DNA of 64,000 bases from Harriotta raleighana (taxonomy: Eukaryota). The DNA lies in the NCBI GenBank assembly GCA_050575255.1, contig JBNZDD010013718.1, forward strand, positions 6,874,579 through 6,938,578. Direction: 5' to 3'. A model generated the notes under the pieces. The model made no database searches and was not told the origin of the DNA. It saw only the letters and a list, made by a program, of their open reading frames with translations. Below are positions 1 to 64,000 of this stretch, piece by piece (the stretch's first letter is position 1; each line of letters starts with the position of its first letter). The position numbers and the translations under genes are program-made.

Positions 1-101
1 TGGCAGGCAGAAGGGAGAACTTTTAGAAAAACATGACTTTGCCTTGAAATTCATAGGTGGTGGCACTGGTTATATCTTTTTAGGTTTTTTTTGTTTTACA
101 G

Positions 102-6020: not shown

Positions 6021-6188
6021 ACATTTGTGAATCCTCAGTATGAAGGAAGCCTTATACCGGCATACATTGTTTTGTTTGTCATGGGCACCTGGGCGTTTAT
6101 TACTGCTGGGGGCTCAGTTCGGAATCTCAAACTTTGTGTAACCTGCAGCGATAAAGACTTTCTTTTGGCGAACCACAGAACCAGATAA
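6021..6188 (+). CDS. aph1b: APH-1B last coding exon (stop TAA 6186-6188)
   Basis: catacag acceptor. TFVNPQYEGSLIPAY...GGSVRNLKLCVTCSDKDFLLANHRTR*, a C-terminus of the fish Aph1b type. Adjacency to ca12 supports the B paralogue. Confidence 0.94.
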   Translation, partial: TFVNPQYEGSLIPAYIVLFVMGTWAFITAGGSVRNLKLCVTCSDKDFLLANHRTR

Positions 6189-21653: not shown

Positions 21654-21780
21654 CTTCATGGAATGAGACGAGGACCTCTCGTTTCCCTAGTTTCTGCACG
21701 TGACGAAAATTCTTCACCATTTCGGTTTTATTGGTTTCCTCCTTATTCGTGAAGAACAAATCGCTCTCTAACTCATCAAG
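21654..21780 (-). CDS. ca12: CA XII exon 8
   Basis: 127 nt, ttccag acceptor and gtgagc donor. LDELESDLFFTNKEETNKTEMVKNFRHVQKLGKREVLVSFHE, with the NFRxxQ motif. Confidence 0.94.
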
Positions 21781-22540
21781 CTGGAAATAAATCAGAATTA
21801 CTGTCACACTGGGCACTGCTCATAGGGTAGCATCTCAAGAATGCTTTAAAGTCTTCAACATTGTGCAACCCAACCTCAGTACACTTTGTGAGATGCTAAA
21901 ATTTGATGCACAAACATTTTGTGTGTTTCCTAACAGGAACCATTAAAAGTGCCCTTTTGAGACAAGAATTCCTACTATTCCAATTTAACAGGATCAAACA
22001 ACATGCCCATCAATGATAACACTAACAGTATCAGAAATAATCTAGGATACATTGTAAGAAAACATCAAAATCTTGGACTCAGTCAACTGGTCACTTGTAA
22101 TTGTCCACTCGAACTTTGTGATCAACAATCCCCAAGTCCTACTCACCAGCCAACTCCATCTGCTCATTCTCATCTGTTGCATGTTCTCTGCCTCACCAGT
22201 GGAAACAAGCTTTTAGGTACTTTCGCCCCACTCTCTGGAATTCTCTCGACAAATTCCTCTGCTTCACACCTTTCTTTTTGCATTCAAAATACTTCTAAAA
22301 ACCTCTCCCTGTGACTGTACCTTTGATCACCTCCCTACTAATCGTCCAATCTCCCACTAGGCTCTGAAACACTTTGAAGAAGTTTCCTGAGATGAAAAGC
22401 ATTATACAAGTCCAAACTGAAACTCAGGACACCATCTCCTTTATAACATCCAAAGAAAAATGTGTCTTTGTGTAAAGGTTGTTATTGTTGTGTACACACT
22501 GAGTAAGACTGCCAATTTAGTGTCATATTATGAGCAGTAT

Positions 22541-23173
22541 TATAATAATCCTTGCATTTAATATAGCACTTTTCATGTCTTCTAGATGTCTCAAAGCACT
22601 TCACAGAATATACTGTAAAGTGAATTGACTGTATATTTGTGGGCGAATGCAACAGTCAATTGTGCACAGCAGTGTCCCACAAACAGTCATGGATTGAAAT
22701 AACCAATTTTTATTGCGGTGTATTGTGTTTTTTTGGGGGCCAAATATTATTAGGCGTGTGTAGGGAAACTTGCCCAAGGATTCACCCTGATCTCCCTGGA
22801 TTTGAACACAGGTCTCATGCTTTTAATAATAATAATAATAATAATCCTTGCATTTGGTATAGCGCTTTTCACATCTTATCAACGTCCCAAAGCGCTTCAC
22901 AGAGTATACTGTAAAGTGAATTGACTGTATATTTTGTGGGCGGAACGCGGCAGCCAATTGCGCACAGCAGTGTCCCACAAACAGTCGTGGATTGAAATGA
23001 CCAATTTTTTTTATTTTTTATTATTGTGGTTTTGTTGGAGGGATTATTATTAGGCATGTGGAGTAAGGAAACTTGCCCAAGGTTTCGCCCTGATCTGCCT
23101 GGATTCGAACACATGTCTCATGCTTGTAAGGCTTGTAAGGCGAGTGCTCTAACCACTGAGCCACAGGAGCTCC
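22541..23173 (-). mobile_element. Two tandem or nested SINE copies
   Basis: Copy A 22541-22822, then copy B from the (AAT)n tail at about 22824. A single shared head ends at 23173. Confidence 0.9.
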
Positions 23174-23373
23174 AATAGAACCAAGTGGTAGCTAGGTTGA
23201 AATAGTTAAAACTGAATAGGCCACTTGCAAAAAAAAGTTTCATACCGTTATTTGAGGCTACATTCAAACTCAAGACTCAAGAGGCAAGACCGTGATAATA
23301 CATTGAGTAATTTAGCACACAAAGTGTTATAGTGACAGATTTCCAAGAATTATTCCAATTGCGCCACATCAAT

Positions 23374-23760
23374 TACAACAACACCAAAATTACATTTATA
23401 GAGCACCTTTCACGTCGGGAGGACATCCCAAGGCACTGAACAGTCAGGTCGGGACCCGAGCAAGGGAGAGGGGCAGGGTAAGGGGGAAGGGCGGGAGAGA
23501 GGAGGGGAGGGAGAGAGTTGGGAGGGCAGCAGAAAATGCAGTCGAAGAGGAGTCTTGAGACTGACCTTGAAGGAGGTGAGGGAGTGAGCAAGACAAAGGG
23601 ACTGTGGGATGGAGTTCCAGAGTGTGGGAGCAGAGAGGCTGAAAGCCCGTCCGCAAATGATAGGGCGGTTTAGGAGGGGGACATGGAGCAGGCTGGAGCT
23701 GCTGAACGGAGAGGGTGGAGAGGTTCATAGGGGAACAGCAGGTTGGAGAGGTGGGGGGCG
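23374..23760 (-). mobile_element. L2 LINE 3' fragment
   Basis: Same 3' UTR and tail as the copies at 2266 and 43548. Confidence 0.85.
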
Positions 23761-25171
23761 CGGGGGGAGAATATAAGTGTGATTTGGCGGAGGCCAGAGC
23801 AGTAGGTTTTGATGTGGTCCAGCCAGATGTGGACCATTAGACCAGATTTGAGCCAAGTGCATTACAGCAGGGAATTACACAAGGGAACATTCCGCTCAGG
23901 GCAGAGGAAATACATGTTCCTGTTTTCTACAAATATTCAGGTTATTTTGAGCTTTGTGTACTAAAGCTTTGATTAGGTACATAGCGTACAATGTAATTAA
24001 GTTGCTCCATTCATACTATCAAAGCCACAGTTTGTAGAATGTGTATCTAATAGGCAGATCAGATGTTCCAGAAATATGAGAATTAATTGGAATAGTCAAT
24101 ATTAATGATCACAACTGCCCCCACCCCCGAAAAAACTAGAAGCAAAATATCAATTCAGCATATCAAAGCAAATATCGATTCGCTGAGAAACCTATTGTTC
24201 TAATTGTGCGATACAATATCTGACAAGAGCAGGAATGCTTCTGATACAGCTTTAAAAAAATATGGAAAATCAGTTGGTGTGGAGGTCACAAAGCAGGAGC
24301 TAACTCGAAGACTGAGGCTGCCAATTCTGAAGACAAAAGAGAAACTTTAACCCAGAGGAACTAAACGGTCAATCACGGACACCAGTCCACAAACCTGATC
24401 TGTGCAGTTTGTAGTTAGCAGAAAGGCCTTTCAAAGTGTTCAAATCAAAAAGATTTTAAGTCCAATCATTATTTCATTTGTTTAAAACATATTTTAGTGT
24501 AATAGAGAAAAGATTTTCCTAGCAATTAATAAGTGGAAGTGTGTACACACACATTACTAGGTCCTCATAACAGGTATAGACAGAGACAAGGGCCTTTATG
24601 AGAAACAAAGGTAGCCTGGCCAACAATCCCCTAGATGAAATTGGTCATTCACTTCATAGCTGCTGTTGGGACTTTGCTGTGCACAAATTCACTGCTACAC
24701 TCACCTAGAACTACACAATCACTACACTCAAAGAGTAAAATCCTTTGAAGTACTCAGACGTTTTAATCATGTGAGAAGGTGCTATAATCAGATGCAAGGA
24801 TTATCATTATTAAAAACACTGAACAGGAACTGCAAGTCAGTTGGGAAACAAATACAGAAAAACCTTGGGAGTAACCTTGAAGTTAAAGGATTTATTATTC
24901 TATACATCTTTGTAATGTCAGTCATTCATGTGCCCTGGGATCTCAAAGTATCCAGATTCACCCCAAGGGATTATTGGTTAAACTAAACCCCAAGAAAGGA
25001 ATCTGGCCTGGCAAGCTATGCCAACCAACATATCACCCTACAATTCCCCTTATTTACATTAGTAACGTCTGACTGAAACAGCACTCTCATTCTGAAGAAA
25101 TGCAAGTATTTAGTGTTGGCTTCAGAAACAGTTCCAAACCACAATGAACGGCGGATCACTTTCTCACCTAC

Positions 25172-25329
25172 CTGTTCCTTAGAGATTTGGACAGGCTTCC
25201 TAAAAACCGTCCAGAGCACACTGGGATAACAAGGAGGAGTTGTGAGGGACCCATGATAGCGAAAGTACTGATCCAGTCGGTCAGGAAGAAGATCTTCAAT
25301 ATTGAAACCAGGTATCTGGACTGTTTGAT
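25172..25329 (-). CDS. ca12: CA XII exon 7
   Basis: 158 nt. [53 protein letters not shown], with the GSLTTPPC (Thr199) motif. Confidence 0.96.
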
Positions 25330-25875
25330 CTGTAGAAATGAAATGCTAATAGTAACAACTAGCTAAAGAAGCAGAGCAGAAGTAATGCCATTTAACACAT
25401 TTAAGTTTTTTTTAATTAAAAAAACTATTTGGTGTTGGCTTCAGAAACAGTTCCAAACCACAAAGAAGGACAGCCCAACAGATCACTTTCTCACCTTAGA
25501 GATTTGGACAGGCTCCAAATCAGGAAATACAGAGTTCACAGCTGTCTTTTTTTTTAAATAAAAAAAGATGGGTCAATGTCTAACTTTCTCCAGCCAACGC
25601 ATGTNAGCCATTCATCATATTTCATAGCACTATGAAATTTTTACGAGTAAAATCATAAACATTCGCCCCCCTTAGCAGCTCAAATGGTTGAGCATGTGAA
25701 ACAGGCTTGTGTTAGTTTCATACTCTATAAATTCCCAAGACAGAATATACGATTGTCTAATCAAGTAGAATCATTTTCAAACCAGGTTTTCAAAACAAGT
25801 CAGTCATTTGTTGTATCTTTTGCATCTGGTTCCAAGCACTAAGTTGTATTTGAATAAAGTTTATAGAATTCTCAC

Positions 25876-25939
25876 CTTTAAACGGGATATCTCTCAGATG
25901 ACCAATTATGTTGTCATAAGCAGGGTTGAATTTCCCAAC
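25876..25939 (-). CDS. ca12: CA XII exon 6
   Basis: 64 nt, ttgtag acceptor and gtgaga donor. VGKFNPAYDNIIGHLRDIPFK. Confidence 0.93.
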
Positions 25940-26052
25940 CTACAAAGACATTTTTTTTAAATGTTTGTTTTTGTGAGTTTGTTATTGTACATTTTTTCTT
26001 TGTTAAGGATGCAAAAAGATAACATGCCACATGATTGGATATGTTCAAATAC

Positions 26053-26148
26053 CTCAATAAGAATTCCCAGAACAGCCAGGCCATCAGTCTTATCCATTGC
26101 TTCAGAAACATTCTGGTACTTTTCAGAGTTGTAGTGAACGATATGCAG
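26053..26148 (-). CDS. ca12: CA XII exon 5
   Basis: 96 nt, tttag acceptor and gtattt donor. [32 protein letters not shown], with Zn ligand His119. Confidence 0.95.
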
Positions 26149-27388
26149 CTAAATGGGTTGAAGGAATGTACAGTAATTAGACCTTTGGGGGCGATTCTTT
26201 ATTCTTCAGTAACGCACACTGTTAGAAAAGTATAACAGTATGAGAATCTGAATGAATGGATTCAGTTTTCAGTGTAGAACTCACAACCAGACCACTATAT
26301 ATACTAAGTGTCTATGTGTGTTTGGATGTGGGGTGGGAGGTCCATGTGCATGTGCCCTGGGTTGGGAAGCTAGAGAGGGGATAACAGCACATGGAAGTAT
26401 TGACAACAAAATTAGATTTGTATAGCACCTTTCACATTGGGAAGACGGTCCCATGTTGCTGAACAAAGCATACAGTAAAATGGACAAAGAGATACAGAAT
26501 TCATGGCTATCTTTTCTTTCTGAGCTCTGCCACTGACAGAAAGCAAACAGCACAAAGAAATGGAGATGTAGGATAGATGGATGGTTGCCTACGTTTTTGT
26601 TTGGTACAGATCCAAGGGATCAGGGAGAAAATGGCTTTAAATGGACAATTATACCTTCAAATTTGATAAAAAGTCACAAATCCTGGGATAATTACCCAAC
26701 AGATTGTGGGATTACAAATACCTCTGGGGTTAACAACCCGTTAGAGTTACTAAACAAATGGAAATAATATACATTAACTGGTAGCATAGTTCTGTCCCAC
26801 TAAGTGCAGTTTTAACAATAGAGAGCTGAGGGCTAGAAATCTAGAACATTGCAATTATAATTTCCTGTGAGCTCCTTTAATGCCAGGTTCCAGCTTGTTT
26901 CACTTTGTTCCAATTGTAGCCGGAATTGGCAGCAGCTGGTGAATAATTGCCCATTGGATTGGACTACACTTCTAAATAAACTAAATTAGTTTCCTTTGAT
27001 GATGGTGTGTGAAGCTACCACTGATTCCTCTCCACTAGCCTGTGGGAAACAATTGCTTGCAAAAGTTTTCAAAACTTTCCTTGCTCAACTTTAGGGTGCA
27101 AGCTTTCGTCAGTCGCCTTGGATTTCTTGATCATAGGCAGAGACCAGGCATCTACTTTGGAGTCCAAAAGAAGGGACATGCATAGCAACGTCTTTCCGTT
27201 TATCTGGAAAGATCATGGAGACACATATATGCCCAAACCTTAAGCCAGGATTGGATATGATGCAGAGAAATCCAGAGAGGATGAGGAGGGACGGTGGGGG
27301 GTGGGCAATACCTTCTTGAAGCCTCAAAAAAGTAGTAACAAGGAAGTACGTACAAGAATACAGTGTCAGCCCAGGCAGGAAATCTCAC

Positions 27389-27531
27389 CTCTGACCCGTA
27401 ATGTTTCCCACTAATGGTGTGCTCAGATCCATTGGGCTCAGCCTTACTCCCCCAGTGCATATGTAGTTGCACTGCAGTGTAACGATCGGGCAAGCTTGTG
27501 ATGTACATGGTCGGGAGCAAGCTCATTTTTA
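27389..27531 (-). CDS. ca12: CA XII exon 4
   Basis: 143 nt. VKMSLLPTMYITSLPDRYTAVQLHMHWGSKAEPNGSEHTISGKHYGSE, with Zn ligands His94 and His96. Confidence 0.96.
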
Positions 27532-29106
27532 CTGGAACAAAACAGGAAACTATTGTTAAGCTTTGAAATTAGTTGAAAAAGATTTCTAAGACAGCGTTAT
27601 GTAAAAGTAGTGTAGGGAATCATTTAATAATTAACTTCAATCAAATGGGATTGGATGATGGCCACCATTGAAGAAAAACCTTCTTACAACTAAGAAATTG
27701 TTACTGCCTTCAGCCTCCCTTATGTTTACAAGAGCCTCTTGCCATGAACCATAGTGACTGAGTTGACAGGAACAAATGAATGGACATATGCATGCATTGG
27801 CAAGTCAGAGCAGCTGCATTTTGGAATCAGAGTGTTTACATGGAGAAAAGCAACCGATACAGATAATTACCGTTTCAGAGCTAAGGTGAGTTTGTGGAAT
27901 TAGTCACACCACTAACGGGAAGCACTGCATGTTGCAATCACTAGCAAAATCTCTTGTGGATAGGAAGCTCAGTTCTGCACCCATGATGAGTTAAAGGGAA
28001 ATTCCACAGCAATCCATTAATCACTATCTGTGGCAACTAGTCAAACTGAAATAACACCTCTGATCGAAACATTCGTTTTGCTTGACCCCACATGCTTTCT
28101 GGCATCTTTGCCTCAACTAAAACCACAATCTGAATTATTTAATTTGATAACCAGCCATTTGCCTGATCCTATCTGCAATTTTTTTGTTTATTTTAAAACC
28201 CCTGGTCACAAGTGCTGGAAATATTTTTTGGACTAGGTTTAATCAGAATTTAAGACAGACATGTAGAGCATTTGCACAATTTCAGATTCGAATAAACATT
28301 CAGAACATGAGCAAACACTCATTGTTCTCACTCTGTGATGTATTTTCAGCCCAAAAGGTTTAATATGGCTGAGAATTCATTGAGATCATTTAAAAGTTTT
28401 TTTTAAAAAAAGTTAATAAATTTGGAAGAATTATTTGACATTTGTCATTTACTAATTGAGATAATGATATCTTATCGCTGGTAGTAATTTTATGAATTTG
28501 ACTCCAGGCACAAGTACAGGTTTATGAGCCAACATGAAAAGCACATGCACCATAGTAAATAGAACATTGATTTGAGAACGATTTGATCATATTAATTCCA
28601 ATGCACAGCCACTTTGCAGAGTAGCTATCTAGCTGGACAATACACTAAGCTTGGAAAGTCTCGCTGGCAGAATTCACCCATAAGTAGAGAAGGAAGGTGA
28701 ATGGTTACCCATACTGATGTTGCAGCACACATTGAGGTTACCACTAAGGGCTGCGCTAAAAACATAAGTTTTGTTAGAAAAAGTTTGCTAGCTTTTGAAG
28801 GAAGGCTTGAGATGATGAAGTAATAGGGGAAACACACAGATCTCTTTCAGGCCTAGAATCCTGGTGGGAAAAAAATTTGGACTAGGTTTAATCAGAATTT
28901 AAGACATGTAAAACACTTGCAACATTTTAGATTAAAATTAAAATTCAGAAAATGAGCATTATAAAATGATAAAAGGTATTCAGTCAATTAAATTTATAGT
29001 ATATTTTGTGAAGGGCTTTAAGACGTCTGGAAGACTTGACAAACTGCTATATCAAATGCAAGGATTATTATTATCATCATCATCATCACTATCATGATGT
29101 TCTTAC

Positions 29107-29289
29107 CTGCATGCCCATTATTTATCAGTGACAAACTCTTAGTTTCTGATAAATTATATCCCATCAACTGGATAGGCTTCAGGTTGGAATCGTACACAAA
29201 GATGCCATTGTGAAAGTCTATGGGTGACTGTTGGTGCACACTTCCACAGTGTGGATAGCTCGATCCCCAATGATCTTCTCCATGAGACC
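29107..29289 (-). CDS. ca12: CA XII exon 3
   Basis: 183 nt, phase 1-1. GSHGEDHWGSSYPHCGSVHQQSPIDF...LINNGHA, with the QSPID motif and the His64 proton-shuttle position. Confidence 0.95.
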
Positions 29290-29811
29290 CTGTAATAGAT
29301 TGCATTTCATTAAACTTTTTTTTTTTTTAATTGCTTAATTCATATGATCAGTCCTACATCATTCTCACTCATCTACAAGAGAATGAAGATTTTAAAGCCG
29401 TTTCTCACTTTCTTTGGGAAATAAGTGATTCATTTTACATTCAATGATTCCAAAGATTTTCATTCCAAACTCTGACATCCAGTTCTGCGTTTCTTAATCC
29501 AAACCATACTTAACTTAGTGACACATCTCGTTTCACAATGAGTGGAAGATTTAAAAGCAGGACATGACATTTTGAGTGGAGGGATGGGAAAGTACAGAAA
29601 AGCAGCAGATTAACAATCCGAGGCAAATGAATATCCATTCTAAAATGCAGCGCCCGTCACCGAGTTTTCCCGAGGTAGCTATTCGGGTCCTTTCAGGAGC
29701 ATTGGGGCACATTATCCATCCTCCTGCTGTTATCAATCACTGGGTAAGGTATTGTTGGAGATTAGGTAGGCTCCACGGACAACCAATTGGAAACTGTGAG
29801 TTTGTGAAGCT

Positions 29812-31940
29812 CTTTCAGAGGCATTAACCTCAGAAACAACCTAGAGCAAGAGCCAGTACACATCACCCAGTCACTTTAGAAAAACTCAAAACAGCCAGAT
29901 AAGATGCAATATCAAATAGAACAGAAGGCACACAAGTAATGTACAATTAGATTGTTCTATTTCAAGGCAGCCACACAGAAATTGCAAAATGGATAGAAGA
30001 CTTTTAGGTTTTTGTTAAAAAAGTAACTACTGTACATTCACAGTTTACCATATTGGTGTATATTATTGCACATTCCTAAAAAATAGTTTGTTCACCCTGA
30101 ATTTATTTTTTCAACCACATTTGTTTGACCAATGCAAAAGTCACAAGGAGCTCTTTAGTTTACATTCCAGTCAACAGCAATGACAATATTTCTTTACCCA
30201 AGGCGAGAAATTCCTCAATGCATCCAATGCCAAGTTTAACTCCGGGACTCGGTGACATGAAGTGCCGGCCAGTGGGCACTTTGTGCTGATGTCAAGTTTA
30301 TTTTTGTATCTTAGATCTCTGTGTGCCCTTGCATGGGTCTTAACACACTATACAAGCAATGATTTAATCAAACAGGAGCAGTGTGCCAGTGCCTAGACCA
30401 CTACACTGCTCGAGAGGAGCCCAGGCAGCGATGCTGGTCACTCTGATATCAATCAATGATGTGGGCACCTACCCAGTGGATTGGGCTGCAACAGTAGTAA
30501 ATGGGTCAGTTGTTAAACTCTATACTAATCTGTGCAGTGACAAAGGAGTGGGGCTGCTATACGTTTTGGAGCTGCTGTCAGCTGCAATCAAGTGCAAACA
30601 ACAATACAATGAACAAGAGAGCATTCACTGAACTTCTCGTCCAGTCCCCCCTTCTCCTCCCGCATCACAAAAAAGTCTCACACATTAATCAATTCCAGGG
30701 CCCGACAGAAGAAAAGCTACTTGAAAGATTTCCTGTGACAAACACAGACAATTGCATTTTTTTAAAAAAAATCAAAGAAGCCCAAATCATAAACAGACGA
30801 AATTCCAAGAATACTTACTAAGCATTTTCAAGTGGCAAAGGCTCACTGTCTGAGCAGTGTTATACTTTCAGTTTTNCTTTCAGAGGCATTAACCTCAGAA
30901 ACAACCTAGAGCAAGAGCCAGTACACATCACCCAGTCACTTTAGAAAAACTCAAAACAGCCAGATAAGATGCAATATCAAATAGAACAGAAGGCACACAA
31001 GTAATGTACAATTAGATTGTTCTATTTCAAGGCAGCCACACAGAAATTGCAAAATGGATAGAAGACTTTTAGGTTTTTGTTAAAAAAGTAACTACTGTAC
31101 ATTCACAGTTTACCATATTGGTGTATATTATTGCACATTCCTAAAAAATAGTTTGTTCACCCTGAATTTATTTTTTCAACCACATTTGTTTGACCAATGC
31201 AAAAGTCACAAGGAGCTCTTTAGTTTACATTCCAGTCAACAGCAATGACAATATTTCTTTACCCAAGGCGAGAAATTCCTCAATGCATCCAATGCCAAGT
31301 TTAACTCCGGGACTCGGTGACATGAAGTGCCGGCCAGTGGGCACTTTGTGCTGATGTCAAGTTTATTTTTGTATCTTAGATCTCTGTGTGCCCTTGCATG
31401 GGTCTTAACACACTATACAAGCAATGATTTAATCAAACAGGAGCAGTGTGCCAGTGCCTAGACCACTACACTGCTCGAGAGGAGCCCAGGCAGCGATGCT
31501 GGTCACTCTGATATCAATCAATGATGTGGGCACCTACCCAGTGGATTGGGCTGCAACAGTAGTAAATGGGTCAGTTGTTAAACTCTATACTAATCTGTGC
31601 AGTGACAAAGGAGTGGGGCTGCTATACGTTTTGGAGCTGCTGTCAGCTGCAATCAAGTGCAAACAACAATACAATGAACAAGAGAGCATTCACTGAACTT
31701 CTCGTCCAGTCCCCCCTTCTCCTCCCGCATCACAAAAAAGTCTCACACATTAATCAATTCCAGGGCCCGACAGAAGAAAAGCTACTTGAAAGATTTCCTG
31801 TGACAAACACAGACAATTGCATTTTTTTAAAAAAAATCAAAGAAGCCCAAATCATAAACAGACGAAATTCCAAGAATACTTACTAAGCATTTTCAAGTGG
31901 CAAAGGCTCACTGTCTGAGCAGTGTTATACTTTCAGTTTT
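29812..31940. repeat. 1064-bp direct duplication separated by a single N (30876), probable assembly artefact
   Basis: 29812-30875 matches 30877-31940. The ORF track shows identical ORFs at an offset of 1065. Confidence 0.9.
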
Positions 31941-43923: not shown

Positions 43924-44232
43924 TAATCCTTGCATTTGATATAGCGCTTTTCACATCTTATCGACGTCCCAAAGCGCTTCAGAGAATATACTGTAAAGTG
44001 AATTGACTATATTTCTGGGCACAATGCGGCAGCCAATTGCGCACAGCAGTGTCCCACAAACAGTCATGGATTGAAATGACCAATTTTATTATTGTTGTAT
44101 TTTTGGAGGGATTATTATTAGGCATGTGGAGTAAGGAAACTTGGCCAAGGTTTCGCCCTGATCTGCCGGGATTCGAACACAGATCTCATGCTTATAAGAC
44201 AAGTGCTCTAACCACTAAGCCACAGGAGCTGC
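43924..44232 (-). mobile_element. tRNA-derived SINE, full length
   Basis: Near-consensus copy. Confidence 0.9.
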
Positions 44233-52091: not shown

Positions 52092-52176
52092 ATGAAGAAC
52101 TTTAACACCGTTGCTTTAGGCTTGGGGTTAATTACCATTTACATGGCTTCATTCACTTCAACAGAAGAGTTAGCAG
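52092..52176 (+). CDS. Membrane-anchored double-Kunitz protein, exon 1 (signal peptide)
   Basis: acaATG start, MKNFNTVALGLGLITIYMASFTSTEELA, consensus CAG/gtaagt donor. Phase 1 is compatible with the Kunitz exon at 58955. Confidence 0.75.
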
Positions 52177-52924
52177 GTAAGTTACACTTTCTGTAGCACA
52201 TAAAGGTCATTTACAATAATAATAATCCTTGCATTTGATGTATTGCTTTTCATGTTTCCTCATAGATATCTCAAAGCACTTAAAATTTGATGGCATTTTA
52301 AAAAAAAATCACCAATGTTAATTAAGGAAAAATAGATGAATAAAATATCCTCAGAATGTGTCTATTTTTAATCTGTTCTAATTGTTTAGAACAGATAGGA
52401 AGAGGGGAAAAAATACAAGATCTTTGCAGATGGATAGATTTTTAAACCAAATTAGCAATGAGAAAATTCGAACAATTTGAAAATAGGATTGGTTTCTGGT
52501 GTAACTATGGCACTGGTGTTACAGTCTGAGCGGGATTAATGATCCCGCCCAAACTACTTCTTTTTTCAGATTTCTAGCATCTGCTGTATTTTGCATTTTG
52601 TTTTGGGAATACTGCTGCTCACCTTAACTCTCTTGAATCTCCTGTCTTTCATCTCTTGTGACTATAAGATATTCTTTCTCAATAGCTCGGTATTTTTTCT
52701 GTTTTATTTCCTTATTTAAACAGTGCATTGTCTTGTCACAACGTGGTGTTCGCTTCACTATGGTAAAGATATTAATATCTCCATTGCTAGAAGATATTGC
52801 TGCTAGATTTCTCTGATCTAACAGTTCCCCATATAAAATCATAACCCCTTGTTATGACATACTCAGGTGTATCACAGCGAGAATAGAAACTATTTCAGAT
52901 CCGACAAATTTCTTCAAAGCCAAG

Positions 52925-53420
52925 TTGGTCATTTTAATCCATGGCTGGGACACTGATTTACACAATTGGCTAGCGTGTTTCGCCCACAAATATGCAGTCA
53001 ATTCACTTTACAGTATATTCTGTAAAGCGCTTTGAGACGTCAATAAGATGTGGAAAGCACTATATCAAATGCAAAGATTATTAAAGAATAATAATATTAT
53101 AATCTTTGCATTTGATATAGCCATATCAAGTCATCAAAATGTCTCAAATAATTAACTGTATTTTGTGGGAGAAACACAGCAGTCAATTGTGCACAGCAGT
53201 GTCCCACAAACAATTGTGAATTGAGAACATAATTTTTAAGGATTATTACCCTCCAGAAAAGCAATCTACCAATTGACTAACTACCGAGATCCTACTTGCT
53301 GCTAAGTAAACAGAGACGTTTGGAGTAAGAAAGCTTGCCTAACGTTTTGCCCTGCTGAGAATTGAACCAAGGTGCTCTTGCCTGCGAAATGAGTGCTTTA
53401 ACCACTAAACTACAGAACTT
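52925..53420. mobile_element. Tail-to-tail SINE pair (+ 52925-53082, - 53096-53420)
   Basis: 3' half on + immediately followed by a degenerate minus-strand copy. Confidence 0.8.
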
Positions 53421-55299
53421 CACAAGATGTTAGCAAGGCTGAGAGATTTTACTTAACCTGAAAGACTTGAATTTTTTCTCCATAAAACTGAGGAGGTTAA
53501 GAGGTGACATGATAGAGATCTTTAAGATTATGAAGGGTAAATGGGAATAAATAATTTTCATTGGTTGGTCTGATAGGGAATATGTTTAAAGAAATTTTAA
53601 AAAGAATTAAATAGGACTTTAGGGGGAAAAAAATCATTAACCAGGGTAGATTGTGGAATTCTCTGCAATAATGTCTTTATTATTTTAAAGGTGAATTAGA
53701 TGCTTGAGAAAACAGAGAAGTAGGATTAGATTAGATGGTTCACATAGAGAAAGTACCACAGCAGATTTAACAGCTTGTTTTTGTTCTGCTCTGAATGTTT
53801 TATGATTTGCAGCCTCCATAATTCCTCAGTCTGGATATTATTTTAGAACATTTCAATTTCCTGTCTGGCAAAATTGAATCTGCCACTCCAACTTCCCCTC
53901 CAACAAAATCATCACCTCCACTGTAACTTCAATGCTCTGCGATTTGAGGACAAGGATTGATGCAGTTAGTTTTTTAGATTGAACGTATCAGGACACATGT
54001 AAAGGAAACAAGTGAAAAGAGAACACCAACGCAATGTGAATGAGATTACCGATTGACATGGGTTGAGAAGTTGGCAATGATCAGTGAATCATCCCTCAGA
54101 ATTCATGTTTAGACATAGAGAAATTCACTTTAAAAAGGAATCAAAGTGGTGGAGACATTATTGCCTTCTGAATAGCAAAAGGGAGAACGCGGAGGAGAAA
54201 AACAGAGAAAAAACTTCAAGTCTATCCAAACAATGAATTAAATTTTTTAGAACCTCCCTCTATATCTCCTTGCATGAACTTTACTTTTGTTAGGAGTCTG
54301 ACACATACAGAAAATCTTTGCTTCTCTTTGTCAAATTCTGGAGCATGTAATCTGTCCCATGGGATTGGGGAAGCAGGGGAGGAGGAGAGGTAGTTGACAA
54401 AACGCCATGTGGTTGGAGGCAAGATTAGAGATCCGATACTATATACTTAGAGATTGCTGGAATTAAACCAACAATAACTTTGCTGTATGAGCACTGTGCT
54501 TAATGTCACCCCACCCCCCGTATCCACCCCACCACCTCAGAGTCAGGCCCTGCTACTGTTGAGAGCTCCCTCCTGTGTGGAGAGCTCCGTGTGAGATGTT
54601 GTTTAATTTAGAGCATTTTACATGTTTCTGTGGGTTTGTAATTTTCCATTGGTAGTGGAGAGGGGTGGGGGTGGACAGTCAATGTAGTTTCTTTCAGCTA
54701 ATACCACTCCATAAAATATTATGTTCATGGTGTCATGAAGGTGGAATGGATTCATTAGTTGAACAGCCCTACATGGGAGGGGTGCTACTTATCAAGTGTT
54801 GTTATCACTTTAACAGCAGGTGACTCAATAGTAACTGGATTGAGGAAAAGTTCATCAAGGCAGTTTATGTTGGAAATTGATTCAAAACGAAACAAATGAT
54901 TTTTATTACCTGTTTGCTTAAACTGTAGAGCAATAAAGTTAGTTGCAAAGAAAACCTTTGCTTCTCTTTGCCCATTCTAAAGTGAAAACTAAAGTGAGCT
55001 GGCAGAAAGATCATGTCATTCTTATTTAAACTTGTTTTTGGGTGTAGGCCTGTATTTATGACCATGAAACCAAGATTAGATTAAAAACTCAACCTTCAAA
55101 TGCACTCGTGAGCACGCAAATACAATAAGTATTACAGATGGATGTACCTTAGTTTAATGTATGCTGGATGTATACAGTAAGATAAAAATAATTTTATAGG
55201 TAAATATTTTAGTTATCATTCTTTATGAATAATATACCTATTTTTCAATATCAAATGCATGATTATTTTGTTTTAATGTCAGATTGTGCAGAATTGTGA

Positions 55300-57420
55300 C
55301 TTTTTAAAGATAAATTTCAGCTTCCATTTGGAAGGAAGGCGGAGTGGGTCATGGCTTGGATGTCGGGGAGGAAAGACCAAAACACCTAGGTTCCTGATTG
55401 GCTTGGTGAAGTCGAGTGTACAACCATGGAGATTGATCATGCCAGTGCCCTATATGTGAAGGCGCTGGCGTGGGCTAATCAGGAGGGCATCTATCTTGCT
55501 GACATTCAACAGTAGAAAGTTAGCTCTCATCCAGGACGATGTCTGACACGCAGTCTGTCCAGGACAGTGGTCCTGGAATCAAGGGTAGAGGCAGAAAGAT
55601 GGTTGGGTGTCATCTGTATAAATGTGGAAGTTGACCCCATGTCTGCGGATGATGTCACCAAGGGGGAGCATGTAGATGTTAAAAAGTAGAGGGCCAAGGA
55701 CAGAACCCTGCGGGATGCCACAGGTGGCAGTGCAGGGAGAAAAAGCCATTGGTGGCGACAAAGTGGAGAAGGTGAGAATGGTAAGAAGGCAGGTCCATGA
55801 AAGTTGAGCTGGGAGAAGAAGGATGAGGATGGAGTGGTCAACAGTGTCAAAGGCAACAGAGAGATCGAGGAGAACAAGGAGGCAGAGAAAGCCCTGATCA
55901 CAGATGTTTAAAATGTCATTAGAGACTTTGACCAGGGCTACCTCCTTCTTATTAATATATATTAATGATCTGGACTTGGGTGTAGGGAGCACAGTTTCCA
56001 AGTTTGCAGATGATACTAAGTTAGGAAGAATAGTAAATAGTGAGGAGGATAGTAACCATCTGCAAGAAGATATAGATAAAATGGTAAAGTGGGCAGACAC
56101 ATGGCAGATGAAGTTTAATGCAGGGAAGTGTGAGGTGATACATTTTGGGAGAAGAAATGAGGGGAGGCAATATAGACTAGATAGTACAATTTTAAGAGGA
56201 GTGAGGGAATAGAGAGCCCTGTGATAGTGACTCTTTGAAGGTGGCAGGACAGGTAGACAAAGCCGTTAAGAAGGCATATGGGATACTAGACTTTATTAAT
56301 AGGGGTATAGATTACAAAAGTCAGAATGTTCTGACTAATCTGTATGAAACTTTGGTTAGGCCTCATCTAGAGTACTGCATCCAATTCTGGTCACCACACT
56401 ATAGAAAGGATGTTAAGGCATTGGAAAGGGTGCAAAGAAGGTTTACTAGAATGGTACCAGGATGCAGAGACTTCAGTTATAGGGAAAGGCTAGATAGGCT
56501 AGGTTTATTCTCTTTGGAACAGAGAAGGTTGAGAGGAGACCTAATAGAGGTTTATAAAATCATTCGACAAGGGAATAAGGAAAAATTGTTTCCACTGGTG
56601 GGTGAATCTGTGGCTCATGGTTGAAAATAGTTTCAAAGCGAAGCAGAGGAGAGCTGAGGAGAAATGTTTTCACTCAGCGGCTTGTTCGAATCTGGAATGC
56701 ATTGCCTGAAAAGGCTGTGGAGGCCAATTCGATAACAGCTTTTAAAAGAGAATTAGATATTTATTTAGGGAGAACGGGTCTGTTAGGTTATGGGGAGAAA
56801 GCTGGACAGTGGGATTGAGTGGCTCTTTTCTAAGAGCCGGCACAGACTAGATGGGCCGAATGGCCTCCTTTTGTGCCGAAAACTTCTATGATTCTATGGG
56901 CAGCACGGAAACTGGATTGTAAGGGGTTTAAAGATGTAATGGTGAGAGAGAAAGGAATGAAGCTGGGCCTTAGAGAGGAATGGGAAGTTGGAGACGGGGC
57001 AGCAGCTGGAGAGTAGGGATGGATCCAGGGAAGGTTTTTTCAGGAATGGTGTGATGAAGCTGATTTTAGAGGGGTGGGAACAGTGCCGTTAGTAAGAAGA
57101 GGTTGATGATGTCAATTAGGAGGGGGGCTAGTAAATGGAGCTGGGAGATGAGGACAGAGGTGGGGATGGGGTCGAGGTAGCAGGTAGTGGGTTTCATTTT
57201 CCAGATGAGAGCAGAGAGGACGGAGGAAGAGATAGGGTCAAAGGTGTGTAGTGGGAGGGTGGGTGGTGGATGGATCCTGAGGGGGAGGTAGTTGGGGGTA
57301 ATGGTAGATGGGGTAGAGGTGGCTGAATGGATTCCCTCAATTTTTAGATGGAGAAGAGGAACCTGGGGTTATCCTTGGCCTCTAAGATTATCTTGGAATA
57401 CAAGGAGGACTTGCCGGAGA
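55300..57420 (-). mobile_element. Decayed L2 RT fragment (about 55300-55938 and 56899-57420) split by a CR1 insertion
   Basis: [10 protein letters not shown]...[19 protein letters not shown]...[21 protein letters not shown]...HIYTDDTQ are RT motifs of the L2 clade. Confidence 0.88.
55941..56898 (+). mobile_element. 5'-truncated CR1 LINE
   Basis: IYINDLD...[10 protein letters not shown]...WQMKFN...LVRPHLEYCIQFWSP...RRLRGDLIEVYK, ending in a ttctatgattctatg tail. Confidence 0.93.
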
Positions 57421-58954
57421 CAAGAGCGGAGAACATGTTAAGACATTGATTCATACCAAGGGCTGAATAATTCATACCTTCTCCAGATGGGCCCTATTTA
57501 AAGTTTGGTTAATAGCACAGAACTCTTAACACTTTACTCAACATCAGAAAGACGTGTCCAAAGATCTTAAGTGCTGAGGCAAGAATATGTTCAAATATCT
57601 ACTAATACACGCACATACATGAACTACAACATGAAATGCGGTAGAATTCTATCACATTCAGACAGTGATATTTTATATACATCAGTAAAACACAAGAGGA
57701 ACAAACTGAAACTTCACATGCATTACTCACAAGCAATATTACATCAGATACTGTTCTGGTTTTTCCCATTAACTTAATCATAATAAGTGACCAAAGCAAT
57801 ATCATTCATTAGATAAAGACAGAAAAATTGAGTTGTGATTGCTTGTAATTCCCGTATTTCTCGTGTGCAGTAATGAATCATTTGAAGTCTGAGGAAAGTG
57901 AATTTGAGGATAAATCATTCTAAACAGTGCATTTTATGGTGATGCTGTTCTTCAGTTGGTTGGTGGCGCATGAAAGCTCTCTTTGGGAGAAAAGCGATGT
58001 TCTTTCTTGAACTAAGAAACATAAATTCTCATTCATTCATTGATCCTGGAAAAGGTCAACACTGGTATAAAGTTTTTGAGGATGCTTTGTGCAGGATACC
58101 AGAGTAGAGCCTTATTAGCCTTTATGATCACACCCAACATCAGATGCAGCTCAGCCACAAATCTCCCTTGACTGCGTCCAGCAATGTGCTTAACCCTAAT
58201 CTCAAAGGAATATTTCCTACGGCACATACGCAGTTTCTTGCTCCCTCACCACATCAATCATCACGTGATCTTGATGAACGAAATGGCCAAAGTATTACCA
58301 ATTAGTGGAAAATAGTGAGCTTTCTCTTTAATAGATTGAGGATTACTCAATGAAACTATTTTCTATTGTAATGTTATTGCTATTCGTATTCCAACCCAGC
58401 AATTCCATGAGTATTTTCAGGAACTGTGATAAGAAATATTTTATTTGAGGAGGCATCAGGTTCAGATTGGATTTGGCAAAAATTCAAATTTCTGAAGCTG
58501 ATAAGGGGCCTGCACCTTTAAGTAAATCAATTTATCATCACGTCCAGCAGAAGGAAGTATTGAATCTTTCTCCAGCATTCATTGATGCAACATCTGTCCA
58601 TTCCTAATTCATCCTGTCTACTTAAACACTGGAGTTCTGGTACAGTGGACTAGCAGATGTGCATTTCATTCACCTCTATACTGTAGCCCAGTCCTTGAAG
58701 ATTTAAACAGCTATTTACGATACAGTAATTGGCTTACAATGCTTGTAGTTGGTATCTATGAAATTGAGGTGTTTTATTAAATCCATCTGTCTTTCTAGGT
58801 GTTAACATCTTGCTATTAATGGCAATTTAGGCTATCGATTCTCGTAACCTCATTTATATTAATTAAAAGTGAAACTTGCAAGATGTATACCTGTCTGGTC
58901 ATGATAAGCAATATACAGTACTGATTAACTCTTAATTTTCCATCTTTGTTGCAG

Positions 58955-59146
58955 TATGCAACCTGCCAATCGATGAAGGACAGACAGGGAATAATTCAGG
59001 AATCAGAATTTATTACGATAAAATTACTGATAGCTGCAAGACGTTTTCATACAAAGGAAAGGGAGGAAATGGAAACAACTTTTTTCTTGACAAACATTGC
59101 ATGAGGAATTGTTCGAAAAGAGCAGAGGAGCTCTATCCAACTGATG
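58955..59146 (+). CDS. Double-Kunitz protein exon 2: Kunitz domain 1 (4 Cys, lacks the C14-C38 pair)
   Basis: ttgcag acceptor, G/gtatgt donor, 192 nt, phase 1-1. VCNLPIDEGQTGNNSGIRIYYDKITDSCKTFSYKGKGGNGNNFFLDKHCMRNCSKRAEELYPTD. Confidence 0.92.
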
Positions 59147-59378
59147 GTATGTAGCACGTGGATTAATAATAATATAAGTAAAGTCTGGACCTGCACAGTG
59201 AAAATGAAGTGATGATATCATTTGCATTATCTCTTCAACCATTTGTATTTACACAGCACCCTTTATGCAGTGCTTGAGCGCCTTACAGAAAAAAACATGA
59301 TTTTACCCATGCTGTGGATTTCCTCAGCAGTCTGGACATTCACTGTATCAAAGCTACTTTTGTTTTTTCTTATTACAG

Positions 59379-59552
59379 ATCGGGCATGTATGCTGCCAAT
59401 GAGCATGGGTGACTGCAAAGGTCACATCTTAATGTATTATTTTGATAGCATAAAGAAGCAATGCGTGAGTTTCCTATATGGAGGATGTGGCGGAAATGGC
59501 AACAGGTTCTTCCTACGGCGAATGTGCAAAACCTTCTGCGCCAGTAAAATAG
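59379..59552 (+). CDS. Double-Kunitz protein exon 3: canonical Kunitz domain 2 (P1 Lys)
   Basis: ttacag acceptor, G/gtatga donor, 174 nt. DRACMLPMSMGDCKGHILMYYFDSIKKQCVSFLYGGCGGNGNRFFLRRMCKTFCASKI: 6 Cys in BPTI spacing with the FxYGGCxGNxNxF signature. Confidence 0.95.
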
Positions 59553-59729
59553 GTATGACTACTTTCCCAGGTATTTCAAGCTGCACTGTGTCACCATTGA
59601 ATGATCGGAATTCTTCAACTTACTTTGCATTCAACATGATAGTGGGCCTTTATCGGTCACTGTCGCCAAGGTCAGCCCATTGAAAACAAAGAAAGATTCG
59701 AGGGTCACAGAAACAAAATATCAGACCAA

Positions 59730-59956
59730 CCTCTGGAATTCCATCCCACTGTCCCTCCACCTCGCCCCCTCCCTTGCCTCCTTTAAGACCCGCCTCAAGT
59801 TGCTCCTCTTCGACGGTCCCATTGGTCTCTCCAAATACCCCCCTTTCCCTCCACCCTCCCTGTCCCTAGCTTGTGTCTGAAACAATGACTGTCCAGTGCC
59901 TTAGGACATCCTCTTGACGTGAAAGGCACTATACAAAAGTAATTTTGTTGTTGTTG
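59730..59956 (+). mobile_element. L2 LINE 3' fragment
   Basis: LWNSIPLSLHLAPSLASFKTRLK followed by a GTGAAAGGCACTATA...(TTG)n tail. Confidence 0.8.
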
Positions 59957-60522
59957 TATGTGAGACCCGCCATGGTTGTAGAGTTTTCTGAAAGAGGGTT
60001 TTCCCCTTGGTGTAACATAAGAAATACTGGATGAAAAAAAGACCAAGGTTTTTCTAGTTCCACCTTTCTGGTGGTTGCATGCATGCGTTCCAAATTACCT
60101 ACGTACTATATACCATAATGGTATTTCCTAAAAGATGACTCATAAGAGCATAAGAAAACACAGATTGTAGCCACAATTGTAGACTCATTCCCATCACCAT
60201 CCCCATTTCTCCCCAAAAGCTGCCCCTGCTGAGTTTAGTTACCTACACTGTTTTGATTTCTGTCCTGTATATTGTTGCACCAGTGTTGTCTTTACACACT
60301 TTGAGAGTGTGTAAATTAATTGGGGGAGCTACAAGATGTATTGGAACAAACAGTAGGTAATTCTGAAATATTTAAGAAATATGTCAATATTTGAAATACC
60401 CTGAAAACCTGGATTTCAAAATTATATTGTTTTTTTTATGATCAATAAGGCTCTTTATTTTACCTTTTGAGTTTTCTTCCTGGAACATATGGTATCACCT
60501 CAATCATCAATCATAAAAGATA

Positions 60523-60656
60523 ATTTGTTTAGGGAGAACGGGTCTGTTAGGTTATGGGGAGAAAGCTGGGCAGTGGGATTGAGTTGCTCTTTTCAAAGAG
60601 TCGGCACAGACTAGATGGGCCGAATGGCCTCCTTTTATGCCCTAAAATTCTATGAT
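60523..60656 (+). mobile_element. CR1 3' end, same subfamily as 55941-56898
   Basis: Near-identical to about 56758-56892. Confidence 0.85.
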
Positions 60657-60808
60657 AGGGGTTAGGTTTCTCTTGAAAGTAAATGATTAGAACTGTTATT
60701 GAAATGTTGATTGATTCAGTTTGATTTAATGAGGTAACCTTCCATGACAGGGGAGATAGGTACTGTAACATGCCTTGAATTTCTTAACTCTCATGTCTTT
60801 GTTGAAAG

Positions 60809-60856
60809 GATCAGATCAGCCTGGCGCTGAAGACGATGAACCTGTTGCAAATGAGG
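60809..60856 (+). CDS. Double-Kunitz protein exon 4: acidic stalk
   Basis: gaaag acceptor, G/gtaagt donor, 48 nt, phase 1-1. GSDQPGAEDDEPVANE. Confidence 0.8.
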
Positions 60857-61830
60857 GTAAGTGGGAAGTTATATTTCCCGTCTTTTTGCCTGGACAAAAT
60901 CTGAATTTTCTGATGATTATGTTTATACAATACCAGATTTAACAGAGGTGAAGATTTTGTTCATACCCACTAAAATCCTCGTCCTCACTTTTGAATCTTT
61001 CCAGAATTGTGCTCCTCACTACGAATGGGTAGTTAACAAGATAACTATTAACAAGATACCAACCTGTCTGGTACTGGTCTGCTCTGTGTCCTCTGCCCCA
61101 TGTCTCCAGCCCTGCCCACCCCACCAATGGCCTTGAGCTTTTCTGCCCCCACTCCCTGGACTGCATTCCACCCACAAAAAATATACACAGTCAATTCACT
61201 TTACAGCATATTCTGTGAAGCGCTTTGGGACGTTGATAAGATGTGAAAAGCAAGGATTATTATTATTATTATTAACTAAATGCCAGAATCCGTTTGCCTC
61301 GCCCTCTCTCACCACCTTCAAGGCCTCTCTCAAGACCTTCCTCTGTGATCTATTAATCGAAAACTCCAAACAACAATTGCAAAGACCACATACCAGATCT
61401 TTTTATTTACATGGTTATGTGGCTATTTACATATCTCAGGATTAAATCATCATTAAATACATCTAGGTAGAGTGCACAACATTGAAGCTTTCTGTAGGAA
61501 CAGGCTCAATGGGTTCAATACATCTTTCTTGTGTTTCTTATTTTCTTGTTATATTAAATGAAGTCCAAAATTGTGGATAAACCCATAGGTAGTGCATGGC
61601 CCTCCCTAGGCCAATTATTAATGGTTGATGGACATGGATGAATATTTGATTGAAGCTGTTTTACTGGAAAGAGTTCTGGGAGGCAATTTAAGAACTCTGA
61701 TTAAAAAGGACTTGTAACACTATTAGACTGTCAGTAAGCAATAATCTGATTCATGTTTTTCATTTCTGGATTATACATATTTGATGCTTTTCACAATGTG
61801 TGAGCAAATTTTCTGGTGCTATTTTTGCAG

Positions 61831-61918
61831 CCCTGTTAATTGGACTGGGAATGGGATTCGCCTTGGTAGCCGTCGTGGCTGTGGCAGGTGTCATTTTGTT
61901 TCTGCAAAGAAAGAAATT
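61831..61918 (+). CDS. Double-Kunitz protein exon 5: transmembrane helix
   Basis: tttgcag acceptor, gtaaga donor, 88 nt. ALLIGLGMGFALVAVVAVAGVILFLQRKK. Confidence 0.88.
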
Positions 61919-62251
61919 GTAAGAATTAATTTTTTTCTTCAAATTTGTCAACAATTAAGTGTATTTTAACGATTGAATATATTTTATATTTGAAGCACAA
62001 TGAAAAGAGCCATTTTCCTTCAATATAAATTGTAAAGCCTAACTATATAATATATTTTGATCAAATTATCAATTTTTAAAACAACATTGGGGTTTAACCA
62101 GCTTTGGTGGAACCATTTTATTCGCCTTACTTGTTCTAGACAATCTTTCTAAAAAAAAATTAGGGCTGGCAAATAGTCAACGATTAATAGTTAACAAGCT
62201 GCTAATGACTGGAATGTGTGCTAATGACCTTTTTTTAAAAAAAACTTTTAG

Positions 62252-62315
62252 ACGTGAGAAGGCATCAAAAAATAGTCAAGGGGAATCTCTGACTGATGGG
62301 ATACAAATGAAGTGA
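62252..62315 (+). CDS. Double-Kunitz protein exon 6: cytoplasmic tail and stop TGA
   Basis: ttttag acceptor, phase 2 matches exon 5. (L)REKASKNSQGESLTDGIQMK*. AATAAA at 62349 and further copies downstream. Confidence 0.75.
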
Positions 62316-62348: not shown

Positions 62349-62354
62349 AATAAA
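62349..62354 (+). promoter_or_regulatory. Candidate polyadenylation signal for the Kunitz gene
   Basis: AATAAA 34 nt after the stop. More copies near 62423 and 62471. Confidence 0.5.
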
Positions 62355-64000
62355 GATTCAGCATGTTTGTAATCTGTGCGTATTCATGAACAAAATATTA
62401 TTTTTTAAAAACAATTTTAAAAAATAAACTTTTACTGGTTGCTTTTATATTTGTTTTACTTTGAATGTTAAATAAAAGTACCAAAATATTTTCTCTCACT
62501 CTAAAAGTGTTTCTTTATCTTAGTAATTATTTTGATTTATCTGTAGGCCTGATGAGCCACTTATTCGAGGAATTTTATTTGATCTGTTTTGCTGCGGGCT
62601 GTCTCTGTGCATTTCCTAACCTTCTGCCATAAGATATGGATGTAAAAAGTTAATATTTTTCCCCTAATGGACCAGACAGTTTCCAGGACTCATCTCGCTA
62701 TTATATTCTTGTTTCCATAACTTGACAGATGTTATAGCATTGTAAACTGCAGCTTTGCTACTGATTATTCACAATGAGAGTTTTGGGATTTTGTTTTTTC
62801 TTTCCCGTTGACAGTATTGTGGGATGCATGGATCTGTGTAGCAGAAATTCACTGACCAAGTGATAATATAGAAATATTGCTCTTCTGTACTGGTTACATA
62901 GAATGTGGGATTTATTTATACTATGACCTGAACAGGATCTCTTGCTTTAAAACACATACAGCACTGTGATTCAGCTGAATCCAGGTGAATGAGAAGAAAT
63001 GTTCAACACTATCAAACCAAGAAAATATCTGTATCAATACATTGGTGTTCTTATAACACCAGTCAATGTTGCTGTAACTATTAAGTGCATAGCAGGTGGT
63101 TTTCCGTTAAGTTTCCTCTGACTTTCCATCCTCTGGTAAGGAGCTGCTGACCCATAGAAGTGCAGCTGAGATCAGGAACTCAGTCAGTGAGGAAGCAATG
63201 CTGCATCTTGTCAGTCCTTTACTCTGGATGTTATGTTTGACTGGCTGTGGGTCCCACCATTTATTGACATTGCCTATTAGTGGACAAAGAAATAAAGCGC
63301 CATATTGTCTCTTTACCCCTTAGGTAATTTTGCAAAAATGCCAGTATATCAATAGAAAATTACAACATATGCTACTCATTCCAGACCAGATGCCTTCCAC
63401 AGATGGAATTCCCATGGAACCAATAAAGAAATTATGCTATATAATATACAATAACATTCTTATAACCTTCAATCTAGCCTTTCATTAGCATCTTTTAAAT
63501 AATATATATTATATTTTTAACAAAATAATAGTGTTAATTGATTTTGGTGTACATCCTCAAACATCACATGGATATTTATTCTGTGAAACACTTTGAGATG
63601 TCTCGAAGACATGATAAGGCGCAATGTCAAATGCAAGGATTATTATTATTCAGCATCTTTAAGATTTAGTTAATGTTCTGCTTCATTCCATTCTGGTATT
63701 TGCTTCAGGTTATGATATGGGGCAATAGAAAAGTGTAGAAATGTTTGCCAATAAAGGCAGGGAAATTTGCGAGTTTTGGGGAAAATTGCGGAAAGTGTAC
63801 CTTTGTTTTCATAATACACATTGGCAAAAGTAGAGGTATCAACATTTTCTATAGTTATACTGGAATCTCTTGTGCTCCACGTGTAAACAGCAGTATTTTA
63901 AAAACTTGTGCAGAGAGGATTACAGATGTTATTGCTTGTTTAATGAGTAATCAATGAATGGTGTGTTTGTTAACTACAAACTAATACATTACTGTATTTT

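Follow-up and report, generated by a model that had tools for sequence, protein, structure and literature searches.

A six-exon gene for a predicted tandem Kunitz membrane protein in Harriotta raleighana, and its relatives in fishes and marsupials

HAI-1 and HAI-2 are membrane-anchored Kunitz inhibitors treated together in a 2026 review, and loss of HAI-2 causes intestinal disease (PMC12940448). HAI-2 (SPINT2) is a protein of 252 amino acids (aa), and its first Kunitz domain (KD1), which contains three disulfides, is the main inhibitory unit (PMC12940448). We describe here a gene from Harriotta raleighana that encodes a predicted membrane protein with two Kunitz domains (KD1 and KD2). The gene lies within a stretch of 64,000 nucleotides (nt), hereafter termed the window (assembly GCA_050575255.1, contig JBNZDD010013718.1, positions 6,874,579 to 6,938,578 of the forward strand). 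We propose that its product is a third surface inhibitor of the HAI type. In this reading, to which we assign a probability of about 0.5, KD2 would restrain proteases of the trypsin type at the surface of the gut epithelium, and KD1 would act as a structural partner.

Gene model and predicted protein

The gene comprises six exons with AG acceptors and GT donors, in phases 1, 1, 1, 1, and 2, and the joined exons (85 + 192 + 174 + 48 + 88 + 64 = 651 nt) form a single open frame of 216 aa followed by TGA. This bears out the six-exon GT-AG model of a first-pass annotation that had been made from the letters of the window. The features of the locus are as follows:

52092-52176, forward strand: exon 1 (85 nt), with the start codon, the signal peptide (aa 1-28), and a phase-1 donor
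58955-59146, forward strand: exon 2 (192 nt), with Kunitz domain 1 and most of the 14-residue linker (PF00014, 53.1 bits)
59379-59552, forward strand: exon 3 (174 nt), with Kunitz domain 2 (PF00014, 66.6 bits)
60809-60856, forward strand: exon 4 (48 nt), with the acidic stalk (16 codons)
61831-61918, forward strand: exon 5 (88 nt), with the transmembrane (TM) helix, G171-xxx-G175, and basic stop-transfer residues (hydropathy peak 2.48)
62252-62315, forward strand: coding part of exon 6 (64 nt), with the cytoplasmic tail and the stop codon
62349, 62423, and 62471 (span 62349-62476), forward strand: three AATAAA hexamers, candidate polyadenylation signals, in an A+T-rich 3' flank

The introns measure 6778, 232, 1256, 974, and 333 nt. 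Each Kunitz domain occupies one exon, and both clear the 21-bit threshold of Pfam PF00014. In the window, a relaxed Kunitz signature occurs twice, at exons 2 and 3, and it has no match in 100 mononucleotide shuffles. The joined product aligns over 214 positions with the Callorhinchus milii protein K4GI31 (72.4% identity), and with full-length proteins of four sharks (49-54% identity), without a frame break in either case; because full-length relatives align in this way, the splicing model is supported. Exon 1 matches the N-terminus of the C. milii protein P0001 (tblastn E 4e-6). The presence of a six-exon Kunitz gene at this locus is confirmed, with the layout that had been proposed for its product (signal peptide, KD1, KD2, acidic stalk, TM helix with a GxxxG motif, and short tail). 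Separately, the 400 bp ahead of the gene were inspected for GATA and CDX motifs; these occur at the background rate of the window and were rejected as evidence of gut regulation.

At the level of sequence anatomy, the product is a type I membrane protein with predicted extracellular tandem Kunitz domains on an acidic stalk. The signal peptide (aa 1-28) is predicted from hydropathy and from a helix at residues 5-23 in a model of the C. milii orthologue. KD1 has four cysteines (C30, C56, C77, and C81), its P1 residue is not basic, the pair corresponding to BPTI 14-38 is missing, and the domain ends in an N-C-S sequon at residues 80-82. A linker of 14 residues with a conserved Tyr-Pro joins it to KD2, which has six cysteines and the binding loop Cys105-Lys106-Gly107, where Lys106 (codon 59417-59419) is the P1 residue. 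KD2 thus carries the canonical sequence features of a BPTI-type inhibitor (six cysteines including the 14-38 bridge, and a Lys or Arg at P1), whereas KD1 does not; KD2 was aligned to bikunin and SmCI. The stalk (aa 147-166) has a net charge of -5 (family mean -7.8), and at the end of the cytoplasmic tail lies the conserved motif (P/S)L...I(E/Q)M, which is possibly a sorting or export signal.

An AlphaFold2 model of the C. milii orthologue, built on a 109-row alignment, has predicted local distance difference test (pLDDT) values of 94-97 over residues 31-150, the linker included, and of 59-65 in the stalk, with a TM helix at residues 164-196 and a predicted template modeling (pTM) score of 0.63. 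The ordered linker suggests a compact tandem, which may or may not be rigid. Single Kunitz structures match the model with Z scores of 10.7-11.8 and a root-mean-square deviation (rmsd) of 0.9-2.0 Å. Among the 50 structure matches listed, bikunin alone extends across the two domains (110 residues, Z 11.0, rmsd 5.3 Å).

A fish and marsupial family with a possible role at the gut surface

Relatives were collected with a family profile built on four chondrichthyan and three ray-finned sequences, which matched 458 proteins at E <= 1e-20; the best 120 were examined. About seven of the 120 are unrelated many-Kunitz proteins; the others come from sharks, rays, bichir, gar, and teleosts, from two marsupial clusters, and from three unnamed records that show the teleost pattern. 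Several members bear the UniProt name Si:dkeyp-73b11.8, and others are automatically labeled papilin-like, boophilin, bitisilin-3, U19-barytoxin, or inter-alpha-trypsin inhibitor. On the grounds of architecture and of domain grouping in a tree, the window gene is placed in this family, and the likeness to unnamed teleost BPTI/Kunitz-TM proteins that the first-pass annotation had noted proved apt. The description of the protein as unnamed holds in that the family has no proper name, although records exist in RefSeq and UniProt, including NP_001279129.1 and K4GI31 from C. milii, NP_001373612.1 from zebrafish, and the marsupial "inter-alpha-trypsin inhibitor-like" XP_051836857.1. The C. milii cluster holds six records (the NP_ RefSeq entry and several AFM/AFK accessions among them), which we infer to come from the full-length cDNA project of PMC3466250. 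One C. milii form, P0007 (NP_001279129.1, 206 aa), departs from the frame at the end of the TM segment and has a tail that differs from the 214-aa forms; this may be due to a cDNA indel.

The marsupial members are intact proteins of 212-214 aa in five genera (Antechinus, Sarcophilus, Sminthopsis, Trichosurus, and Macrotis), and they share the four-Cys KD1, the linker, the stalk, and the TM segment. The earlier suggestion of a gene that cartilaginous fish retained and mammals lost is therefore not supported: loss in mammals is false, and the family is also widespread in ray-finned fish. No amphibian, reptile, bird, monotreme, or placental member occurs among the best 120 of the 458 matches; because the marsupials rank at the bottom of these 120, the remaining 338 could hold other amniote or amphibian members. 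To our knowledge, no human Kunitz gene has this architecture. A loss of the family in placentals is possible, which would make it a candidate placental-specific gene loss.

Several predicted proteins depart from the common form. In bichir and reedfish (P0042/P0174), the KD1-KD2 unit occurs twice ahead of the TM segment in one predicted protein, while a tilapia protein (P0028) has three units and no TM segment, and a sardine protein (P0076) has two units with two TM segments and may represent two merged tandem genes. Predicted 176-aa isoforms from dasyurid marsupials (P0293-P0295) begin within KD1 and have no signal peptide. A tilapia-like record, CAI5664141.1, is also labeled as ferret, which we take to be a mislabel. 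KD1 had no match among longer proteins in a word-indexed search, and an exhaustive KD1 search returned mostly many-Kunitz proteins, together with the bichir, tilapia, and sardine family members. In the coelacanth Latimeria, a model labeled LRP11 (P0164/P0178) has four near-identical Kunitz repeats ahead of a TM segment; we know of no Kunitz domains in mammalian LRP11.

Conservation was assessed in a family alignment of 113 rows (the window gene, 102 listed matches, and 10 added relatives), in which a few species occur twice; many-Kunitz and repeated-unit sequences, along with some partial ones, were excluded from it. None of the 113 rows has a cysteine at KD1 position 14 or 38, the inter-domain linker has 14 or 15 residues in all 113, and the acidic stalk and TM segment are present throughout. 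All four groups retain Tyr89-Pro90, Ser82, Asp54, Lys120, and Gly171, although the window gene itself has Gln at position 120. The N-x-S sequon that closes KD1 occurs in 108/113 rows (it is missing in the five marsupials) and the TM motif G-xxx-[GAS] in 109/113; teleost members carry an additional, second sequon in KD2. In the tail motif, the family counts are Pro 94, Leu 98, Glu 102, and Met 81 of 113 rows, and the marsupial version is looser. The window protein is 37-39% identical to marsupial members and 31-43% identical to teleost members. In a tree of 72 domains and 56 columns (support values unstarred, outgroups limited and lacking SPINT1/2, AMBP, and APP, and two KD1s missed by the pattern), the family KD1s form one group (13 rows, support 93/91) and the KD2s another (15 rows, 91/88), each apart from 44 other domains; the "inv" labels on its unnamed outgroups are our own.

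We propose that the protein is a gut epithelial type I membrane protein with an action like that of HAI-1 and HAI-2, belonging to a separate gene lineage that would be at least as old as jawed vertebrates. By analogy with BPTI, in which a Lys at P1 is the trypsin-binding residue (PMC3721222), the Cys-Lys-Gly loop of KD2 would insert into the S1 pocket of a serine protease of the trypsin type and mimic a substrate that is cleaved slowly. The targets damped in this way at the epithelial surface may be pancreatic trypsin or membrane proteases such as matriptase, prostasin, or TMPRSS. Because KD1 has neither the 14-38 bridge nor a basic P1, we interpret it as a structural partner with no inhibitory activity, which the ordered Tyr-Pro linker would hold to KD2. 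The P1 of KD2 is Lys in 10/10 chondrichthyan rows, the window gene included, and Lys or Arg in 5/5 marsupial rows; a role for KD2 as a serine-protease regulator, judged from its sequence, is plausible.

The proposed site of action comes from zebrafish. The gene si:dkeyp-73b11.8 belongs to a set of 385 genes specific to the intestine, and its in situ signal covers all three gut regions (PMC9600436). In a single-cell study it marks enterocytes (94.9% of cells, compared with 24.2% elsewhere), foregut epithelium (97.6%), best4 cells (90.6%), mucus cells (86.5%), lysosome-rich enterocytes (LREs; 78.4%), and also endocrine clusters (PMC11591593). In comparisons of LREs and ileocytes, it was found in about 66-74% of cells (PMC11906160).

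Several points weigh against the proposed inhibitory role. The gut expression data are confined to the zebrafish gene rather than coming from cartilaginous fish, and the link between the family and the zebrafish symbol depends on the names under which UniProt lists the medaka, gar, turbot, and mormyrid members. P1 is Lys or Arg in just 5/96 teleost-group rows (Ser in 27, Asn in 18, Tyr in 11, Phe in 11, and others), and it is Gln in gar and bichir; the zebrafish protein, which is the source of the expression data, has Phe. Taken together, the zebrafish Phe and the teleost drift imply that no single trypsin-type target holds across the family. The drift is the main difficulty for the proposal, and it would call for either re-tuned targets or a function independent of P1. 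Furthermore, no inhibition assay, localization, or mutant was found in the literature searched, which was mainly open-access. Within the open-access literature, neither a functional study of the family nor its recognition as one family reaching marsupials was found, in agreement with the earlier description of the gene as uncharacterized.

An alternative reading is that of a non-inhibitory surface module (for example, a co-receptor, an adhesion or trafficking partner, or a modulator of a channel or transporter), in which the KD1 face, the linker, and the TM motif would be functional while the KD2 loop drifts. The lack of P1 conservation in teleosts fits this reading, as do family-specific invariants outside the binding loops (D54, S82, Y89-P90, K120, and G171), and KD1 shares the two-disulfide frame described for conkunitzins that block K+ channels (PMC3721222). 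These conkunitzins also rank high among the sequence matches of KD1 in the PDB. However, Kunitz domains with four cysteines are also found in an unrelated multi-Kunitz protein and in anntoxin, a trypsin inhibitor (PMC3721222), and this frame therefore does not set the function. The mean net charge of KD1 is -1.4, unlike that of the basic channel blockers, and the retention of a Lys or Arg at P1 in chondrichthyans and marsupials alike also speaks against this reading. We regard this alternative as unlikely.

A further alternative is mucosal defense, with the KD2 loop adapted to proteases of parasites, microbes, or food instead of host enzymes and differing between lineages. Among the 51 KD2 columns of the teleost group, P1 is the third most variable and P2' the fifth, but eight KD1 columns are about equally variable (at least 2.99 bits), so the variability of the loop alone is no proof of positive selection. 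Bichir and cichlids carry repeats of the entire KD1-KD2 unit, as does the sardine model, which would suit a defense protein, whereas the fixed Lys at P1 in every chondrichthyan row would not. Responses to exposure are divided: the zebrafish gene had a fold change of 1.67 following yeast exposure (PMC7256946), while it was unchanged in norovirus-exposed intestine (adjusted p = 1; PMC11591593). On this evidence, a defense role seems rather improbable.

Genomic surroundings

Of the 427 upstream stop-free frames of at least 45 aa, the 140 longer ones were put to Pfam, which identified two neighbors:

37-6185, forward strand: Aph-1 family exons
21523-29326, reverse strand: exons of a CA12-like carbonic anhydrase gene, in head-to-head orientation to the Kunitz gene

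Both carbonic anhydrase exons tested match human CA12 best, with 79.4 bits against 72.3 for CA14 in one exon and 59.6 against 48.1 bits in the other. The order in the window, Aph-1, CA12-like gene, and Kunitz gene, crosses four single-N scaffold gaps (at 30876, 40668, 48429, and 49311), all between the last carbonic anhydrase exon found and the Kunitz gene; subject to these gaps, the position next to ca12 noted in the first-pass annotation is upheld. No USP3 exon was found in the window, which stops 1.7 kb past the Kunitz stop codon. The human order is APH1B-CA12-USP3.

Repeated sequence is found at two of the gaps. A 1064-bp block occurs as 100% identical copies (29812-30875 and 30877-31940) on either side of a single N, which most likely reflects overlapping ends in the assembly and not a true duplication. 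Similarly, a 283-bp repeat (96.8% identity) flanks the N at 40668. Intron 1 of the Kunitz gene contains, at 55579-56818, two adjacent reverse transcriptase remnants of the long interspersed element (LINE) type on opposite strands (RVT_1 E 1.6e-12 and 1.4e-4), and a 139-bp end piece of the forward-strand remnant reappears in intron 3 (60518-60656). On the reverse strand, 44163-44225 has an Rfam tRNA match (41.4 bits) within a repeat of ~300 bp that occurs several times in the window, and this element is probably a tRNA-derived short interspersed element (SINE).

Comparison with known Kunitz proteins

RefSeq and UniProt already list the gene from many species, with automatically assigned names, and because its parts and likely chemistry are familiar, the degree of surprise is moderate. 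If the proposal is true, it would add a missing player to proteolysis at the gut surface, one hidden under a dozen misleading automatic names. A broader scenario, which we offer tentatively and hold to be possible but not probable, is that of a third, hitherto undescribed membrane-anchored Kunitz lineage beside HAI-1 and HAI-2, present in gut epithelium from sharks to marsupials and located in the ca12 interval, with a conserved, non-inhibitory two-disulfide domain and an inhibitory domain, re-tuned at P1 in teleosts and lost on the placental stem. Were it so, the family would be a natural experiment on the resistance of gut surfaces to their own digestive proteases, and on what took the place of the gene in placentals.

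HAI-2 resembles the window protein in its signal peptide, two Kunitz domains, TM segment, and short tail, in lacking MANEC and LDLRA domains, and in epithelial expression (PMC12940448). This shared order of parts (PMC12940448), together with database names such as "papilin-like" and "inter-alpha-trypsin inhibitor," could indicate a diverged SPINT2 orthologue, or a piece of papilin, AMBP, or TFPI. We consider this identity very improbable and largely refuted. The KD1 of HAI-2 has three disulfides, whereas that of the window protein has two and a P1 that is not basic. The linker between the domains is ~44 aa long in HAI-2 and 14 aa long here. Against the structure of human HAI-2 KD1 (4u32), the window KD1 scores 23.7 bits, near the bottom of 61 matches, and 4u32 is not among the best 60 structure-sequence matches for KD2; the marsupial protein scores 49.6 against HAI-2 KD1, below its scores for APP or collagen VI. 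In an Atlas feature search with shark and marsupial queries, SPINT2-named clusters do appear, in third place (0.92), but the nearest cluster is a separate one (0.97). Moreover, zebrafish spint2 and si:dkeyp-73b11.8 are listed as separate genes in one single-cell dataset, with different marker patterns: spint2 marks epidermal cells, ionocytes, and pancreas, among others, and shares best4, mucus, and some unnamed clusters with si:dkeyp-73b11.8 (PMC11591593). The separate zebrafish genes, the KD1 disulfides, and the weak HAI-2 KD1 score all support the earlier view that the gene is not a plain SPINT2 orthologue.

Papilin, AMBP, and TFPI carry additional domains (TSP1/Ig, lipocalin, and a third Kunitz domain, respectively) and have no TM segment. 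In a Pfam scan of three proteins (P0001, P0289, and P0299), only two Kunitz domains were found, with no papilin, lipocalin, MANEC, PKD, or LDLRA parts; these proteins have just the two domains plus a TM segment, which speaks against such an identity. Bikunin (AMBP) likewise has a closely spaced tandem Kunitz pair, but both of its domains have six cysteines and its tandem geometry is only a loose fit to the model. It is secreted, fused to a lipocalin, and lacks a TM segment.

Conkunitzin-S1 and anntoxin share the four-Cys frame of KD1 (PMC3721222), but they are single secreted venom or skin peptides, and in this comparison there was no sign that the window gene is a toxin. The model matches conkunitzin-S1 (1y62) with an rmsd of 1.1 Å over 56 residues and a Z score of 11.3; because six-Cys domains match equally well (Z 11.8), the likeness is at the level of the fold only. 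A special link between KD1 and anntoxin was also considered and rejected, as the family profile matches anntoxin best via KD2 positions.

The closest likeness in architecture is to the zebrafish si:dkeyp-73b11.8 protein and its automatically named orthologues, those of C. milii and marsupials included, with which the four-Cys KD1, linker, stalk, TM segment, and tail motif are all held in common, while P1 is Phe in zebrafish and Lys in the window protein. HAI-1 (SPINT1), which additionally has MANEC, PKD, and LDLRA domains that are absent here, is likewise a membrane-anchored two-Kunitz inhibitor in which one domain is dominant. It shares with KD2 an Arg/Lys-Gly loop at P1-P1', and the P1' Gly of KD2 is the same as in HAI-1 KD1 and TFPI KD2.

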